From: Promethearchaeia archaeon
Lineage (GTDB): Archaea > Asgardarchaeota > Lokiarchaeia > Sigyniarchaeales > SOKP01
DNA: 33,387 bases
Direction of reading: 5' to 3'
Assembly (NCBI GenBank): GCA_029856155.1
Contig: JAHQWL010000057.1
Location: 1 to 33,387, forward strand
Shown: piece after piece, positions 24,660 through 31,846 of the stretch
Position numbering within the stretch: position 1 is the first letter of the stretch
How the letters are laid out: each line of letters begins with the position of its first letter
The notes under the pieces: model-generated
Told to the model about the DNA's origin: nothing
Database searches by the model: none
The model's input: the letters and a program-made list of their open reading frames with translations, nothing else
Position numbers and translations under genes: made by a program

Positions 24660-25355
24660 GTGATACTCATTCCTCTCATACCCGACCCAGTAATTAGCTG
24701 TGATTTTGAAAATGTTTATACTCCTTCTGATGATAGTTATCTATTAATTGACTATTTCAAAGGTAATATTAATGAAAATCAGTTTGATGGTATAAATATT
24801 AGTGAGATTGAAAATATTTTAGATTTGGGTACGGGAACAGGGATAATTGCTATTCTTTTTCAATTAATTAAAGTACAATACCCAAATTTTAATCCTAAAA
24901 TCTATGCTTCAGACATTTTAAAAGAAGCAATAGAGTGTGCTAAAATAAATGAAGAAGCAAATAAAATCAATAAGGAAATCACTTTTTTTCACTCTGATTT
25001 ATTTATATCCTTTCCAGAAAGATTAAAAGATTCTTTTAATATTATCGTTTTTAATCCCCCTTACTTGCCATCCTCACAATTAATAAATCAAAATTATGAG
25101 AAAAAAATAATAGATTATAGTTGGGATGGGGGATTAAAAGGATATGAAACTTTAATTAGTTTTCTTGAAAATGCCAAACTTTTCCTAAACTTGAAGAAAG
25201 ATCATAGTATTTATTTTATTACTTCAAGCAGAACTGACTTGCTAGAATTAAATGAAAAAATTAAAAATTTAAGTTATAAAAATAAATTAGTGGAAAAAAG
25301 ACATATATTTTTCGAGGATATTTTTTTAAACAAGCTACAATATAAAACTCATTAG
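24660..25355 (+). CDS. HemK2/Mtq2/N6AMT1-like (release factor glutamine) methyltransferase
   Basis: VYTPSDDSYLL, LDLGTGTG, SDLF, FNPPYLP, WDGG..G, FFEDI. GTG start. Confidence 0.88.
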   Translation: MILIPLIPDPVISCDFENVYTPSDDSYLLIDYFKGNINENQFDGINISEIENILDLGTGTGIIAILFQLIKVQYPNFNPKIYASDILKEAIECAKINEEANKINKEITFFHSDLFISFPERLKDSFNIIVFNPPYLPSSQLINQNYEKKIIDYSWDGGLKGYETLISFLENAKLFLNLKKDHSIYFITSSRTDLLELNEKIKNLSYKNKLVEKRHIFFEDIFLNKLQYKTH

Positions 25356-26632
25356 AAAGGTCTTCTATCTCTTCTTTTTTCTAATAAAGAAACACCATGG
25401 GTATTTAGTGTCCTAGTTAAATTATTAAGTAGTAAATCTACTTCTTTTGGCTTAAATACAGCCCTTCTATGAGCTTCAATTTGAGGGATGGGTAAACCAT
25501 AATGTTCATTCAAGCTTGAAATTGGCAATAAAATTGATGATATTAAATCAGCTTTCTCAGAAGCTTTTTTAAGTGAATGATTTTCATCCATAAAGAATTC
25601 TATTCTACAAGGTGTATCAAATCGAGCAGTTTTTAGGTAAAATGCATAAAATGACAGTGGAAAATAATATGGTATTTCTTTTTTGATTCCAGTATCTCTA
25701 ATTTTATCAATTTCCCTCTTACAATTAAAAATACAAGATCTCTCAGACTTCTTCAATACACGGTTAAACAAATCTAAATCCGAGAAAAATTCCATTAGTT
25801 TTCGATAATTTATTTTTAGAAAATCGGGTAAATTTGAATAGCTTGGTTTCAGTAATTGGATAGACTCTTGTAAAAGATGAGTTAATGCAGAAGTTCTCGT
25901 ATCTTTAATTGAACCAATTAATAATATTCCATTTTCCTTACAATATGAATACAATTTATGATATTCTTTCAGAAGCTTGTCATATTTTCTCGATATTTCA
26001 TGATCTTTAGAAAATAATAAATTGATTGGCATAATAACAATCGATCCATCAATTATTATCATATCAATCTCTGGAGATTTTCTGATCATATTATTCAGAA
26101 GATTGATCTCCATGAAATTCATATCAATTGAAATTTTAGTTTCTACCGCAATCTCATCCTGATTAAGGAAATTTGCTTGTACATAATAATTATTAAAACC
26201 ATTTAGATCGGGATAGTATACAATTTTTGCTGTATGATTTTGTTGAAAATAATATTTTGCAGCGATTGCTTTTAAAAATGAAAAATCGACGTTCATAAAT
26301 TTTTTAGTTACCGAGCTTCCATCAACACTCACTACATTTAAACCCCTTATATTGGCGGAAGATACATTTTTTTTTAAAAAATCTTCTTTAATGTAAAATC
26401 TGGGAAAATCTATGAATTTCGAGAAGTCTATATTATCAAGATTTTTTAAAATTATATCAATGAAATTTTGTTTTAATTTTTCAAGTGCTAAGTACTCATT
26501 AGCAATAGCTTTAAGATCCTTTAGTAAAAGTTGTTCTTTAGTTAGTCCATGAGTTTCATTAATCTCATTATTATGATTATAGAGATCAGAAGTTTTTAAT
26601 TCTGGTTTTATGAACTTATCCCTAACTGTCAT
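25352..26632 (-). CDS. nurA: NurA family 5'-3' nuclease
   Basis: SVDGSS, MEI, IIDGSI, GSIKD, YGLPIPQIEAHRRA motifs. Confidence 0.85.
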   Translation of the reverse strand: MTVRDKFIKPELKTSDLYNHNNEINETHGLTKEQLLLKDLKAIANEYLALEKLKQNFIDIILKNLDNIDFSKFIDFPRFYIKEDFLKKNVSSANIRGLNVVSVDGSSVTKKFMNVDFSFLKAIAAKYYFQQNHTAKIVYYPDLNGFNNYYVQANFLNQDEIAVETKISIDMNFMEINLLNNMIRKSPEIDMIIIDGSIVIMPINLLFSKDHEISRKYDKLLKEYHKLYSYCKENGILLIGSIKDTRTSALTHLLQESIQLLKPSYSNLPDFLKINYRKLMEFFSDLDLFNRVLKKSERSCIFNCKREIDKIRDTGIKKEIPYYFPLSFYAFYLKTARFDTPCRIEFFMDENHSLKKASEKADLISSILLPISSLNEHYGLPIPQIEAHRRAVFKPKEVDLLLNNLTRTLNTHGVSLLEKRRDRRPF

Positions 26633-26725: not shown

Positions 26726-27367
26726 ATGACCATAAATTTAGGACAAAATCCTTGGATTTTAATAGGATTATCCTTTTTTGAACTTCTATTTGTAATTATT
26801 CCTGCTTTAATTTCTAGCAAATTAGAAAAAAAGAGTATTATAATCACAATAAGAGAGATGGGTTTTCAAAAGAATGAAGACATTTTAATTAAAATAATAT
26901 CAGGGATAAGTTTTGGTATTTTATTTTTCTTTTTGGGTGGATATATTATAGTATTTTTTAGAGATTATTTTATAAGAAATTTGTTTGGATCTGAATTTGT
27001 AGAACTTGGACAAGAAGGAGCTATTAGTACATCCGCAATTCAACCTAATTTTATTCAAGGATTAATCCTTATTATTATACAGTTAAGTATTATAGGACCC
27101 TGTGAAGAAGCTTTTTTCAGGGGATTCCTTATAAAAAAAATCGAAATGAAATTGAAATTAACATATTCTATTATTATCTCATCTATATGTTTTACTATTT
27201 ATCATGTTCCTCCGTTCTTAGTACCTTTAACTACAATCATAACATTTTTTGGTTATTATTTTACGTATGGAGTGATGCTATCTCTTATTTATGTGTATTT
27301 TAATTATTCAATAATTCCATGCTCAATTACCCATTCGATTTTCAATATTCTTATTTTATTAATATGA
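26726..27367 (+). CDS. CPBP family intramembrane glutamic endopeptidase (Abi/Rce1)
   Basis: Intact motifs EEAFFRG, FTIYH, HSIFN; multiple TM helices. Confidence 0.9.
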   Translation: MTINLGQNPWILIGLSFFELLFVIIPALISSKLEKKSIIITIREMGFQKNEDILIKIISGISFGILFFFLGGYIIVFFRDYFIRNLFGSEFVELGQEGAISTSAIQPNFIQGLILIIIQLSIIGPCEEAFFRGFLIKKIEMKLKLTYSIIISSICFTIYHVPPFLVPLTTIITFFGYYFTYGVMLSLIYVYFNYSIIPCSITHSIFNILILLI

Positions 27368-27502: not shown

Positions 27503-28027
27503 ATGACTGATTACGATTATACTTTTAAAATCATGATGTTAGGTGATGCCTCTGTAGGAAAGACATCTCTAACAATGAGATATATTTCGGGTTTTTTTAT
27601 GGAAGACCTTAAATTAACAATAGGTGTCGATTTCTATTCTAAGACAACCTCCTTTAAGAATAAAAAAGTTAAATTACAAATTTGGGATTTTGGAGGGGAA
27701 GAACGTTTTCGATTTCTACTCTCCCAATATAGCAAAGGTGCAAATGGAGCATTTTTTTTATATGATATCACTAATCAAACATCGTTAGATCACTTACCAG
27801 ATTGGACACAAGTAATTAGAGAGCATGCAGGGGATATACCGATAATGTTAATTGGTTCAAAAGTAGACTTAAATGAATTCCGAGCAGTAACTCGCGATGA
27901 TGGAATATCAGCAGCAAAAAAATATAATCTTGCTTCTTTCGTGGAATTATCATCTAAAACGGGGGAGAATGTAGAAAAAGCTTTCAATGTTATTACAGAA
28001 ATTCTTTTTGAAAAGTATTCAAGTTAA
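27503..28027 (+). CDS. Rab-like small GTPase (Ras superfamily)
   Basis: GDASVGKTS (G1), TIGVDF (G2), WDFGGEERFR (G3), SKVD (G4), SSK (G5). Confidence 0.93.
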   Translation: MTDYDYTFKIMMLGDASVGKTSLTMRYISGFFMEDLKLTIGVDFYSKTTSFKNKKVKLQIWDFGGEERFRFLLSQYSKGANGAFFLYDITNQTSLDHLPDWTQVIREHAGDIPIMLIGSKVDLNEFRAVTRDDGISAAKKYNLASFVELSSKTGENVEKAFNVITEILFEKYSS

Positions 28028-28119: not shown

Positions 28120-28665
28120 ATGGTGTGTTTTATAACAGATATTAACAATGAAGAACCTCCAAGGTCAGTAGGGATTCAAATAAATACCAAAGCACCAATG
28201 ATAAATACTATAGATATCTATGAGAATCCAATAAATCTAAATGATCTGCTTCAAACTTACGATGGAGTTTTAATAGATTTTTTTCGCGGTAATTGGTGAA
28301 GTCATTGTAAAAAGCATTTAAAACTATTAACTGAGCATATCTCTGAATTTGAAAATCGAAATATTAAGGTTATCTCTATTGCAAGCGATAGCGTCAGACT
28401 TTTGAGAAAATTTAAAGAAGAGAATGGTTTTAAAATAGATCTAATTTCTGATAGAGGTGCTAAAATTGCGAAAGAATATGGCGTTTACTGGTTTGCACCT
28501 GGTGGAGGAAAAAATTATAAAATAAAACAAGCAGTGCCAAGTAAATTTCTCATTGATAAGAATGGTGAAATTATCTGGAAATACATAGGGAAAGATAAAA
28601 CTGATAGACCCTCAATTAAAATGATGGTGGAAATAATTGATAATAATATTATAAATCCCAAATAA
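28120..28665 (+). CDS. Peroxiredoxin-like AhpC/TSA family probable selenoprotein (UxxC, TGA at codon 60)
   Basis: Frame open from ATG 28120 to TAA 28665 except for one TGA at 28297-28299: MVCFITD...GIQINTKAP...GVLIDFFRGNW-U-SHCKKHL...VISIASDS...LISD..AKIAKEYGV...AVPSKFLIDKNGEIIWKY. 181 codons. Confidence 0.88.
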
Positions 28666-28667
28666 GA

Positions 28668-28702
28668 ATGAAATGAACGTAAAAAAATGAGACGTTCAAG
28701 AA
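28668..28702 (+). promoter_or_regulatory. Candidate 3'-UTR SECIS element
   Basis: ATGA(A)A, stem TGAACGT (28674-80), A-rich loop AAAAAAATGAG, stem ACGTTCA (28692-98), then AGAA. UGAA/AGAA could form tandem G.A pairs. U-tract follows at 28730-28740. Confidence 0.5.
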
Positions 28703-29023
28703 CTACCCTGCGAAGGTTTTGGGATAATCTTTCTTTTTTTGATCAAGATATAAACATTGAAATCTTGTCCACATTTTGTCAATAATTTATTAATTGTCAA
28801 TTCTCTTTCTAGTTGGATTTTTTGGTTTATAAAATCCACAAGGTTCTCCATGACATTTGCCTGATAAACGTTCTATATGAAAACATTCTCTCTCTTACTT
28901 CAAACTCTGCGTTTTAATAAATAAATAACCTAAAATTTATTAATATAAATAACGTAAATATTTATTAATCAACTAAAAATGAGATTTAAATAATTATTTA
29001 AAAGATGTATTTAATATATCTGG

Positions 29024-30337
29024 GTGGATATTTTGGAAGAAAAGGAATATCACTTTAAAAATATTTATATTCTAATTTTCTCGCTGCTTTATTTAATACA
29101 AGGAATAACCCAAAGTATGTTTATGGTTATTATACCAATTTATTTACTTGAAATACTAGGTTCGATAGAAGCTTCTACTATTGCCTTCTTAGGATCAATA
29201 ATTATGATCCCCTTCATAATTAAAATAATTTTTGGTGCTTTAAGTGATAAGTATGGTATTAAAAAACTAGGAAGAAGAAAACCGTGGATTCTTGGAGCAT
29301 TGTTTTTTAGTGGATTAGTTGTGATGTTTTTACCTATTCTAGTTAGTGCAAATCCTAGCGCAGTTATTGCAATTATTATTTTAGTGGGTTTCTTTTCTAT
29401 GTTCGGATTGGCTATGTCAGATACTGTGATAGATGGGTTTATTCTCGACATTACTCCTAAAAATCAATTAGGTCGTATTCAAGGGGCAACATGGGGATTT
29501 AGATCTGTAGGAATAGTGCTTGGTGGTCCGGCAATTTTACTTTTTATGTATATAATGCCATTAGATTTAATATTTATTATGTTAGGAATCTTAACTATAG
29601 TTTTTGCGATATTTATTCTTTATATTAAAGATATTGAAGAACCAAGAAAAGTAAATTTCTTCAGTAATCTTAAATTAATAATCAGCAAAGGTGAAAACTG
29701 GAAACTATTCAGTTTTTCTTTTTTTACTGCGATTATTGATGGAGTCATTTTTTCAGTTATTTCTCTTTACATTTTGATCCGTGCAGGTATAATTGCGGCT
29801 GAAGGTGCTACTCTTGAAATGGTGGAAACAGAAATTAATTTATATGGACCAATAGCTTTTATATCAGCAATAGTAGGAGGAGGCATAATATTAGGTGCCC
29901 TTCTCGGAGGTTACGTTGCAGATTTAAAATCAAGAAGATTTACTTATTATTTGTCACTAGTTCTTATAACAGGTTCTTTACTTTTATTACTAATTCCTGT
30001 TTCTGTAGTAATATTATTAATTTTTGTAATCATAGTAGGATCTGCGAGTGGTTGGAGTCACTCGAGTTTTGGTTCTATTGCTAGTGGATATGCAAGAGAA
30101 TATCATGAGGTTCGGAGTTCTTATTTTGCTCTAAGTGCTTCATTTGTTAATTTTGGGACGATGTTAGGATTAACTCTCACTGGAATAATATTTGAATTAA
30201 TGTCAGAAATTACTTCAGATACATATCTTATTTATTCTGTTGTTTTTATATTTATGGCAATTCTTTCAAATGTAGGTATAATAGCGTTTTTGACACTCGA
30301 TCCAAAAATATATGAGCATAAAACTAAGAAACAATAG
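29024..30337 (+). CDS. MFS transporter (AmpG/PAT-like)
   Basis: LYLIQGI, GALSDKY..KKLGRRKPW, SDTVIDG, GGYVADLKSRR; about 12 TM helices. GTG start. Confidence 0.85.
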   Translation: MDILEEKEYHFKNIYILIFSLLYLIQGITQSMFMVIIPIYLLEILGSIEASTIAFLGSIIMIPFIIKIIFGALSDKYGIKKLGRRKPWILGALFFSGLVVMFLPILVSANPSAVIAIIILVGFFSMFGLAMSDTVIDGFILDITPKNQLGRIQGATWGFRSVGIVLGGPAILLFMYIMPLDLIFIMLGILTIVFAIFILYIKDIEEPRKVNFFSNLKLIISKGENWKLFSFSFFTAIIDGVIFSVISLYILIRAGIIAAEGATLEMVETEINLYGPIAFISAIVGGGIILGALLGGYVADLKSRRFTYYLSLVLITGSLLLLLIPVSVVILLIFVIIVGSASGWSHSSFGSIASGYAREYHEVRSSYFALSASFVNFGTMLGLTLTGIIFELMSEITSDTYLIYSVVFIFMAILSNVGIIAFLTLDPKIYEHKTKKQ

Positions 30338-30424: not shown

Positions 30425-31846
30425 TTGTCAAAAAAATATGCTAATTGGATTAATGAAAATCAGCAAGAATTAATTGAAATTAGTGACAAAATTTGGGAAT
30501 TTGCAGAAGTTGGATTTGAAGAGTATAAATCATCAAATCTATTAGCAGAAACATTAGAGAAGGCTGATTTTTTCGTTGAAAAAAATGTCGCAGGCATACC
30601 AACAGCATTTTGTGCCAGTTATGGTAATAATAAACCTGTAATTGCTATATTAGGTGAATATGACGCATTACCAGGTTTAAGTCAAATTAGAGAACCAATA
30701 AAAAGACCTCTAAAAGAAGGAGCACCAGGTCATGGCTGTGGACACAATTTATTAGGTACAGGGTCACTAGGAGCTGTTCTTGCGGTCAAAGAAGCTATTC
30801 TTTCAGGAGATGCTAATGGTACAATAAGATATTACGGTTGCCCTGCTGAGGAAAAATTCAATAGTAAGGGCTATATGATTAATGCAGGGGCATTTAAAGA
30901 TGTCGATATTACTTTATCATGGCATCCTGCTTTTATGAATGCAATAAATGATGTTTCATTATTAGCGATTAATTCTGTAAAATTCAGATTTCTTGGTCGT
31001 ACAGCTCATGCTGCTTTTGATCCACAGAATGGACGAAGTGCATTAGATGCTGTAGAATTAATGAATGTAGGAGTGAATTATTTGAGAGAGCACATTATTC
31101 CTGATGCTAGGATCCATTATGTAATTACAAATGGTGGAGAGGCACCTAATGTTGTTCCAGATAAAGCGGAAGTATACTACTTTATTAGAGCTCCTGAACG
31201 TTCTTCAGTGGAGGAACTTTATAAACGTGTTATTAAAATAGCTGAAGGGGCAGCATTGATGACAGAAACTAAAATGGTAATAAATTTTTTAGGGGGAATG
31301 TATAATCCTTTACATAATGATGTAATTGGGAATGTCCTTCTTTCTAAAATGAGATTGGTGGGGGCACCTAGGTTTAATAAAGAAGATCGGGAATTTGCAG
31401 AAAAACTCAAAAAAACTTTGCCACCCGGTTCAATGGAAGCCTTTTCTCGCTTTATTCCTCCTAATTTACGTGATATGGCTAAGCAAATTCTTGATCAACC
31501 TTTAAATCGTATGATACTTCCTGGAATTGGAAAAGGAAAAATTGTGCCAGGTTCTTCAGATGTCTCTGATGTATCAAGAGTTACACCTTTAGGTGAAATT
31601 GCTACAACTTGTCAAATTATGGGGTCTCCAGGACATTCTTGGCAAAATGTTTGCACCTCTGGTATGAGTATAGGTCATAAAGGAATGATAACTGCAGCGA
31701 AAATATTAGCGTTATCCGCTATAGAATTTATGAACAATCCCGAAATAATTAATAAGGCAAAACGCGAATTTGAAGAAAAAATTAAAGATAATCCTTATAT
31801 CTCACCATTTCCAGAAGGATTCAAACCTCCATTTATCAATCAATAA
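30425..31846 (+). CDS. abgB: M20 amidohydrolase, p-aminobenzoyl-glutamate hydrolase subunit B-like
   Basis: GEYDALPGLSQ, GHGCGHNLLG, GCPAEE, WHP, GRSALDAVELMNVGVNYLREH, GSSDVSDVS, PGHSWQ. TTG start. Confidence 0.88.
   Translation: MSKKYANWINENQQELIEISDKIWEFAEVGFEEYKSSNLLAETLEKADFFVEKNVAGIPTAFCASYGNNKPVIAILGEYDALPGLSQIREPIKRPLKEGAPGHGCGHNLLGTGSLGAVLAVKEAILSGDANGTIRYYGCPAEEKFNSKGYMINAGAFKDVDITLSWHPAFMNAINDVSLLAINSVKFRFLGRTAHAAFDPQNGRSALDAVELMNVGVNYLREHIIPDARIHYVITNGGEAPNVVPDKAEVYYFIRAPERSSVEELYKRVIKIAEGAALMTETKMVINFLGGMYNPLHNDVIGNVLLSKMRLVGAPRFNKEDREFAEKLKKTLPPGSMEAFSRFIPPNLRDMAKQILDQPLNRMILPGIGKGKIVPGSSDVSDVSRVTPLGEIATTCQIMGSPGHSWQNVCTSGMSIGHKGMITAAKILALSAIEFMNNPEIINKAKREFEEKIKDNPYISPFPEGFKPPFINQ

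Follow-up and report, generated by a model that had tools for sequence, protein, structure and literature searches.

The prxL locus and its reading frame

The window, by which we mean the whole stretch of 33,387 nucleotides that was analysed, carries on its forward strand a gene, prxL, of 181 codons followed by a TAA stop codon (28120-28665, the stop at 28663-28665). Its frame runs from the ATG at 28120, the earliest ATG, GTG or TTG found downstream of the preceding in-frame stop, and has a single interruption, a TGA at 28297-28299 (codon 60) in the context DFFRGNW-TGA-SHC-KKHL. We read this codon as encoding selenocysteine (Sec, U), which would occupy the first position of a U-S-H-C redox box whose second position is Cys63 (TGT, 28306-28308). 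Translation table 11 cuts the gene into a 59-aa ORF (28120-28299) and an 87-aa ORF opened by an internal TTG (28402-28665), and it was the latter alone that appeared in the ORF list from which an earlier note on this DNA was written.

That note had described the frame from ATG 28120 as open but for the one TGA, and this is confirmed. The read-through product (P0001, 181 residues) matches the Pfam family AhpC-TSA over residues 21-153, spanning the TGA (E = 2.6e-23; 82.7 bits against a cut-off of 26), and also the Pfam family Redoxin (7e-18). Because the domain extends across the TGA, and because the TGA stands at one column in all 30 orthologues that were fetched, the frame is not a product of chance.

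Directly upstream of prxL lies a gene for a 174-residue small GTPase of the Ras/Rab family (27503-28027, forward strand; Pfam Ras, 1.5e-47), a typical 'eukaryotic signature' gene of Asgard archaea. The neighbourhood further comprises NurA (25352-26632, reverse strand), a CPBP/Rce1-like protease (26726-27367), an MFS transporter (29024-30337) and an M20 peptidase (30425-31846). A T-rich tract at 28730-28740 on the forward strand is, to judge by its sequence alone, a likely archaeal transcription terminator. The estimated contamination of the host metagenome-assembled genome (MAG) is 5.7%.

Conservation of the TGA and selection on the frame beyond it

A search with the read-through protein recovered homologues in 84 of 151 Lokiarchaeia genomes. 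All matches covering residue 60 contain at least one in-frame TGA; just three matches are devoid of it, and all of these begin at residue 80 or beyond. The motif FFRGNWU[S/N/T]HC, with TGA as the codon for U, is present in every one of the 30 fetched orthologues. The earlier note had suggested searching homologues for an alternation of TGA and Cys codons at this column. The TGA is retained, and no Cys form was found among close homologues, where Sec is fixed. Cys occurs at the Sec column in distant families only.

At six of the fetched loci (L025, L028, L030, L032, L039 and L046) a second prxL stands in tandem; it contains two TGAs in a UxxU arrangement (PrxL.1 type) and is accompanied, about 200 nt downstream, by a SECIS of its own. 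A search of the host genome with the PrxL query found no UxxU paralogue.

The substitution pattern downstream of the TGA is that of a coding sequence: 1224 of the 1805 nucleotide differences to the orthologues fall at third codon positions (68%), and 955 of the 1436 changed codons are synonymous (66%). The coding signature is in fact stronger after the TGA than before it. Since the differences lie mostly at third positions and the changed codons are mostly synonymous, we conclude from this pattern that the part of prxL downstream of the TGA is under purifying selection and is translated in frame.

A lokiSECIS element directly behind the stop codon

According to the text of Mariotti et al., 2016 (PMC4989117), a SECIS element of Lokiarchaeota (lokiSECIS) consists of an AUGA followed by a 9-bp stem, an 11-nt loop and then GA (AA in VhuU); the first five bases of the loop are mostly A and the last one is G, usually preceded by A. 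Type I eSECIS-like elements are reported for the prxL genes of Asgard archaea, and a core of the form AUGA_AA for frhA/hdrA/frhD of Lokiarchaeia, in the text of Huang et al., 2024 (PMC11227280).

A eukaryote-like lokiSECIS occupies positions 28668-28702 of the forward strand, only 2 nt downstream of the prxL stop codon. The 5' half of its kink-turn core, AUGA (28668-28671), is followed by helix II, in which the 5' arm AAUGAACGU (28672-28680) faces the 3' arm ACGUUCAAG (28692-28700) with seven Watson-Crick pairs and two unpaired basal positions. The apical loop of 11 nt, AAAAAAAUGAG (28681-28691), opens with A7 and closes with AG, as published for lokiSECIS, and the 3' half of the core is AA (28701-28702). 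Positions 28668-28700 thereby present all published features, and the deviation is confined to the AA found in place of GA at 28701-28702.

The same element was found at the same place in all fetched relatives when their untranslated regions were read directly. An alignment of 27 elements contains compensatory double changes in eight of the nine helix II pairs; shuffled and slid controls come nowhere near the score of the structure, which RNAalifold recovers unaided. A covariance model built from the relatives only, with the window sequence left out, retrieved 28652-28731 at 86.1 bits (E = 1e-20), the runner-up match in the window reaching 17.5 bits. A search for the strict published pattern gave five matches in the 4.1-Mb host genome and none in five shuffles of it. 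Of the four matches other than that of prxL, three were inspected, and all three follow an ORF that contains an in-frame TGA: one of the MvhD type, one of the HdrA type and one small ORF of no known kind. A rigid SECIS pattern fails to find the element in more than half of the prxL orthologues, many of which have a loop of 12 nt or begin the loop with G.

Taken alone, the 101 nt of 28660-28760 have no excess folding stability over shuffled sequences (z = 0.36), so that the support for the element comes from covariation and not from energy. A scan of the window at Rfam gathering thresholds gave no match, which says nothing on the presence of a lokiSECIS, since standard SECIS models are stated in the text of the Asgard papers to miss such elements.

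Among 35 aligned prxL elements, the AUGA_AA core is restricted to the copy studied here, the 34 relatives having GA. The same core occurs in the host genome's own HdrA-type gene, and given this and its reported presence in Lokiarchaeial frhA/hdrA/frhD, it is probably tolerated in prxL. The A at 28701 could be either a tolerated natural variant or a base-call error; in this MAG, it is only comparison with relatives that argues against base-call errors at 28297 or 28701.

We considered whether prxL may be a pseudogene, that is, a redoxin gene broken by a nonsense mutation, with a terminator or a chance structure as its downstream hairpin. The two short ORFs obtained under table 11 and the public annotation of relatives as partial redoxins are what such a gene would produce, but a decayed gene would hardly keep its TGA at one column in homologues across 84 genomes, experience purifying selection past it and be followed by a conserved, covarying SECIS. 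The pseudogene, which we consider very improbable, and a split gene were both rejected on these grounds.

Sec machinery and use of TGA in the host genome

The host genome contains a full set of genes for Sec synthesis and insertion, for which the earlier note had suggested a search: tRNA-Sec, SepSecS, a PSTK-like gene, SelD and an EFSec-like gene. The tRNA-Sec scores above the Rfam cut-off (62 bits) and is assigned the anticodon tca by ARAGORN. It is immediately adjoined by SepSecS (483 bits, above cut-off), and about 4 kb from the two lies an EFSec/SelB-like GTPase, whose match covers the first 321 of 581 model positions at 238.7 bits, just under the cut-off of the NCBIfam model for bacterial SelB. 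The PSTK-like gene is also below its NCBIfam cut-off (155.7 bits), with a match that spans the whole model, whereas SelD is above cut-off and has an in-frame TGA of its own.

At the same time, TGA is a normal stop codon in this genome, where it ends 218 of 1681 long stop-to-stop frames (13%), and it is the terminator of prxL itself in five relatives. These figures bear on a change of the genetic code (table 4 or 25), under which UGA would specify an ordinary amino acid, Trp or Gly, throughout the genome. The Trp that some public gene calls place at this position in relatives would fit such a change, but those calls come from short metagenome contigs (the longest about 0.7-2.3 kb) and are attributed to automatic choice of the code. 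Moreover, the anticodon tca belongs to a tRNA of the Sec type that adjoins SepSecS, and the remaining genes of the window match Pfam domains under table 11. A code change was therefore rejected, and we regard it as even less credible than a pseudogene.

In the five relatives mentioned above (L027, L036, L045, L047 and L050), the terminating UGA lies within the AUGA of the SECIS core. A single mRNA would here use UGA for both Sec and termination, and the terminating ribosome would sit on the kink-turn core.

With these alternatives set aside, the conserved TGA, the SECIS and the Sec machinery lead us to regard prxL as very probably decoded with Sec, and the 181-aa selenocysteine redox protein postulated in the earlier note is in this respect well supported.

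Fold and active site of PrxL

The structure of PrxL was predicted by AlphaFold2 from 39 aligned sequences (pLDDT 89.4, with low confidence at residues 2-9). In the model, U60 follows the strand 49-54 and directly precedes the helix 61-72, which places residue 60 at the canonical active-site position of the thioredoxin fold. The best match in the PDB is Bcp4 (3hjp, TM 0.77/0.88), and the nearest structures are peroxiredoxins of the BCP/PrxQ and AhpE groups, ResA ranking only 20th.

PrxL shares with the BCP/PrxQ and AhpE peroxiredoxins, such as Sulfolobus Bcp4 (3hjp) and Aeropyrum BCP (2cx3), its Pfam family and top structural matches, and its Cys63 aligns with their peroxidatic Cys. The active site is nevertheless different. 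When PrxL is aligned with Aeropyrum BCP, F-F-P-A-A-F-S-P-V-C stands opposite F-F-R-G-N-W-U-S-H-C, so that the catalytic Pro is replaced by Arg56, Sec60 takes the place of the Thr/Ser and not of the peroxidatic Cys, and the catalytic Arg is replaced by Gln137. The P-x-x-x-T/S-x-x-C motif of peroxiredoxins is accordingly absent from PrxL, as is their active-site Arg. Gln137 is invariant in the PrxL family, in which Arg56, Gln137 and Pro140 are all invariant or nearly so.

The redox box resembles instead that of ResA/TlpA-type oxidoreductases (4nmu), whose W-C-K-P-C aligns residue by residue with W-U-S-H-C of PrxL, and whose cis-Pro loop L-P-T-S-F-L-I-D-K is kept in PrxL as V-P-S-K-F-L-I-D-K. The TGA thus stands opposite the first Cys of the ResA box, in agreement with the earlier proposal that it replaces the first Cys of a CxxC. 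The likeness has limits, as ResA/TlpA proteins are membrane-anchored, extracytoplasmic and Cys-based, whereas PrxL has Sec, is structurally nearer to peroxiredoxins, and shows no N-terminal membrane anchor or signal of the ResA/TlpA type (NCBIfam ResA, 52 against a cut-off of 170). Its N-terminus is hydrophilic (T-D-I-N-N-E-E-P-P-R), and in the absence of a hydrophobic segment there, PrxL is probably cytoplasmic.

Outside the redox box, the conserved part of 36 aligned sequences contains no Cys. A Cys3 in the variable N-terminal tail is found only in this copy and in one close relative.

As all NCBIfam matches of PrxL lie below their cut-offs, no equivalog name can be given to it. The best of them is SelL (NF040769; 2.3e-14), the UxxU Prx-like proteins of aquatic animals, which have in common with PrxL a Prx-like fold and Sec in a thioredoxin-type box; PrxL reaches 53 bits against a cut-off of 120, has one Sec and not two, and belongs to a different domain of life. 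PrxU of Eubacterium acidaminophilum (NF040737) is likewise a Sec-containing member of the Prx superfamily, but PrxL attains just 27 bits against a cut-off of 270, and its Sec lies three residues earlier. In PrxU, Sec is found in place of the peroxidatic Cys.

The designation 'peroxiredoxin/AhpC-like' in the earlier note consequently stands in part: the Prx fold and the AhpC-TSA domain are there, while the PxxxT/SxxC...Arg catalytic set is lost. With Sec at the Thr/Ser position, Arg56 where peroxiredoxins have their catalytic Pro and Gln137 where they have the Arg, the sequence argues for the name 'Prx-like', and PrxL is not a proven peroxiredoxin.

PrxL as a member of a known selenoprotein family

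PrxL is one of five selenoprotein families of Lokiarchaeota in the text of Mariotti et al., 2016 (PMC4989117), where the single-Sec gene is called PrxL.2 and the double-Sec gene PrxL.1; the statement of the earlier note that Sec decoding had been reported in this lineage is hence correct. The 'Prx-like' class is defined there as relatives of Prx that have a thioredoxin-type redox box, with the first Cys changed to Sec and no other Cys, and the same text reports no experimental characterisation of these selenoproteins. Prx-like selenoproteins are present in 43% of Sec-using Asgard archaea according to the text of Huang et al., 2024 (PMC11227280).

The gene described here is the Lokiarchaeial orthologue of PrxL.2. 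It agrees with the published family (PMC4989117, PMC11227280) in lineage, fold class, a U-x-x-C box with Sec first and the lack of conserved Cys outside the box, in a lokiSECIS directly behind the stop codon (AUGA, 9-position stem, 11-nt A-rich loop ending in AG), and in the tandem UxxU paralogues (PrxL.1) of its relatives. It differs in the AUGA_AA core, where AUGA_GA is expected, in the non-conserved Cys3, and in that no UxxU paralogue was found in its host genome. Both the family and its RNA signal were thus already known (2016, 2024), and prxL is an ordinary, well-supported example of a gene that gene callers split. The 'hidden' selenoprotein of the earlier note was hidden from annotation pipelines, and not from the literature.

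Proposed chemistry

Gene structure, UGA conservation, predicted fold, SECIS and Sec machinery lead us to infer selenium incorporation at codon 60 and, from there, the following cycle. The prxL mRNA would be translated from AUG 28120, and the UGA at codon 60 would be decoded by Sec-tRNA(Sec), delivered by an EFSec of archaeal/eukaryal type under the direction of the eukaryote-like lokiSECIS, which lies 2 nt past the UAA, the distance from the UGA being about 370 nt. Translation would yield a cytoplasmic protein of 181 residues and an estimated 21 kDa or so, with a thioredoxin fold of the peroxiredoxin type, in which helix 1 begins at the active site W-U60-S-H-C63. The selenolate of U60 may attack an oxidised substrate, be it a disulfide or possibly a hydroperoxide, whereupon C63 would resolve the intermediate as a selenenylsulfide, and a reductant of the thioredoxin type may recycle the enzyme. 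We favour such a cycle of selenol/thiol-disulfide exchange through a U60-C63 selenenylsulfide, although for thiol/selenol-disulfide oxidoreductase chemistry in PrxL specifically we would claim about an even chance.

A serious alternative keeps Sec decoding as it is and makes PrxL a genuine hydroperoxide peroxidase, analogous to peroxiredoxins and GPx, with U60 as the peroxide-reactive residue, passing through a selenenic acid, and C63 as the resolving one. Sec is an excellent peroxide-reactive nucleophile, as established for GPx and PrxU. The nearest solved structures, which are all BCP/PrxQ and AhpE peroxiredoxins, the best Pfam family (AhpC-TSA) and the alignment of C63 with the peroxidatic Cys of BCP point in the same direction. 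The catalytic set of those enzymes is, however, lost in PrxL through replacements (R56, U60 and Q137) at which the family varies little or not at all, and the box of W-C-x-x-C type together with the V-P-S-K-F-L-I-D cis-Pro loop matches ResA/TlpA-type oxidoreductases. On this balance a peroxidase is a real possibility, to which we give appreciably less than even weight; disulfide exchange through U60 and C63 is the cycle that we prefer.

A possible three-armed fold of the SECIS element

Beyond the AUGA/GA hairpin, the region 28652-28731 of the window may form two further helices; this fold was also analysed at loci L023-L051 and L058-L087. The 5' strand of an outer helix (helix I), AUCCCAAA (28655-28662, forward strand), lies in the last codons (N-P-K) of prxL and pairs with UUUGGGAU (28718-28725, forward strand). 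Between helix II and this 3' strand stands a side hairpin with a GCGA loop (hairpin 3, 28705-28717, forward strand). All three helices are predicted by RNAalifold without guidance. For the side hairpin, a register shifted by one was also tried; it leaves 74% of cells paired with no double changes, and the RNAalifold register fits better.

The three-armed shape is present in the unconstrained minimum-energy fold of six of the eight SECIS elements of the host genome. Among relatives it is obtained for 21 of 27 mvhD and 24 of 35 prxL elements, against about 20% when the flanks are shuffled. The sequences of the outer helix are wholly different between gene families, yet always complementary.

The k-junction, in which a three-way junction incorporates a kink turn (PMC4005666), is the nearest structural parallel known to us. 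No extra SECIS arms are described in the text of PMC4989117 and PMC11227280, figures and supplements apart, and a literature search for SECIS together with 'three-way junction' found nothing relevant. We lean towards the view that the SECIS here and at the host's other selenoprotein genes is a three-armed, k-junction-like structure and not the simple hairpin of the 2016 and 2024 texts. The outer helix would then, with fair probability, join the last codons to a segment of the untranslated region about 55 nt downstream, enclosing the stop codon within the fold. It seems similarly plausible that the AUGA/GA hairpin forms the second arm, and a short GNRA-like side hairpin a further one on the 3' strand.

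If this three-armed reading holds, the archaeal SECIS-recognition factor would recognise the side arm and the outer helix as well, and the SECIS element would have to be melted by any ribosome that terminates on prxL. The AUGA_AA copy of prxL would in that case provide a natural test of a kink that is weakened or of an alternative kind.

Other known and candidate Sec genes of the host genome

The window itself is contig C57 of the host genome. Further selenoprotein genes of the HdrA and MvhD types, which are known Lokiarchaeial families, lie on host contigs C21 (L056), C22 and C98. They include an hdrA-mvhD operon that contains Sec codons and in which one SECIS, located behind mvhD, is shared.

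Three small ORFs of 77-111 residues, on the reverse strands of contigs C74 (around 5803), C24 (around 13354) and C103 (around 54533), contain an in-frame TGA (motifs C-F-U, C-G-U and S-U) and a hydrophobic segment, and are followed by a lokiSECIS-like element. These sequence features make them candidates for small membrane selenoproteins that belong to none of the published families.

A 158-residue ORF on contig C26 (63563-64036; L088:364-840) has two adjacent TGAs (G-C-U-U), and its stop codon is followed 11 nt later by a SECIS. The ORF belongs to no Pfam family and has homologues in 53 of 61 genomes of the taxonomic family, where all matches that span the site carry two or three TGAs.

Consequences for annotation

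The expectation of the earlier note that standard pipelines truncate this gene is met in public databases, where relatives of PrxL appear as fragments of 102-119 residues named 'peroxiredoxin' or 'redoxin domain-containing protein', or else have Trp at the TGA. The latter is the case for all 38 full-length database entries (among P0002-P0042), in which each Sec is rendered as Trp (W-W-S-H-C, W-W-x-x-W); no close Cys form of PrxL was found in the protein database. We read these entries as automatic translations of short contigs with TGA as Trp, and they could mislead annotation by homology.

As to the biology of Sec, prxL adds one more well-documented Prx-like selenoprotein and does not change what is known of Sec decoding in Lokiarchaeia. 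Its main importance lies in annotation: since PrxL is publicly available only as fragments or Trp translations, standard pipelines under-call the selenoproteomes of Asgard MAGs.
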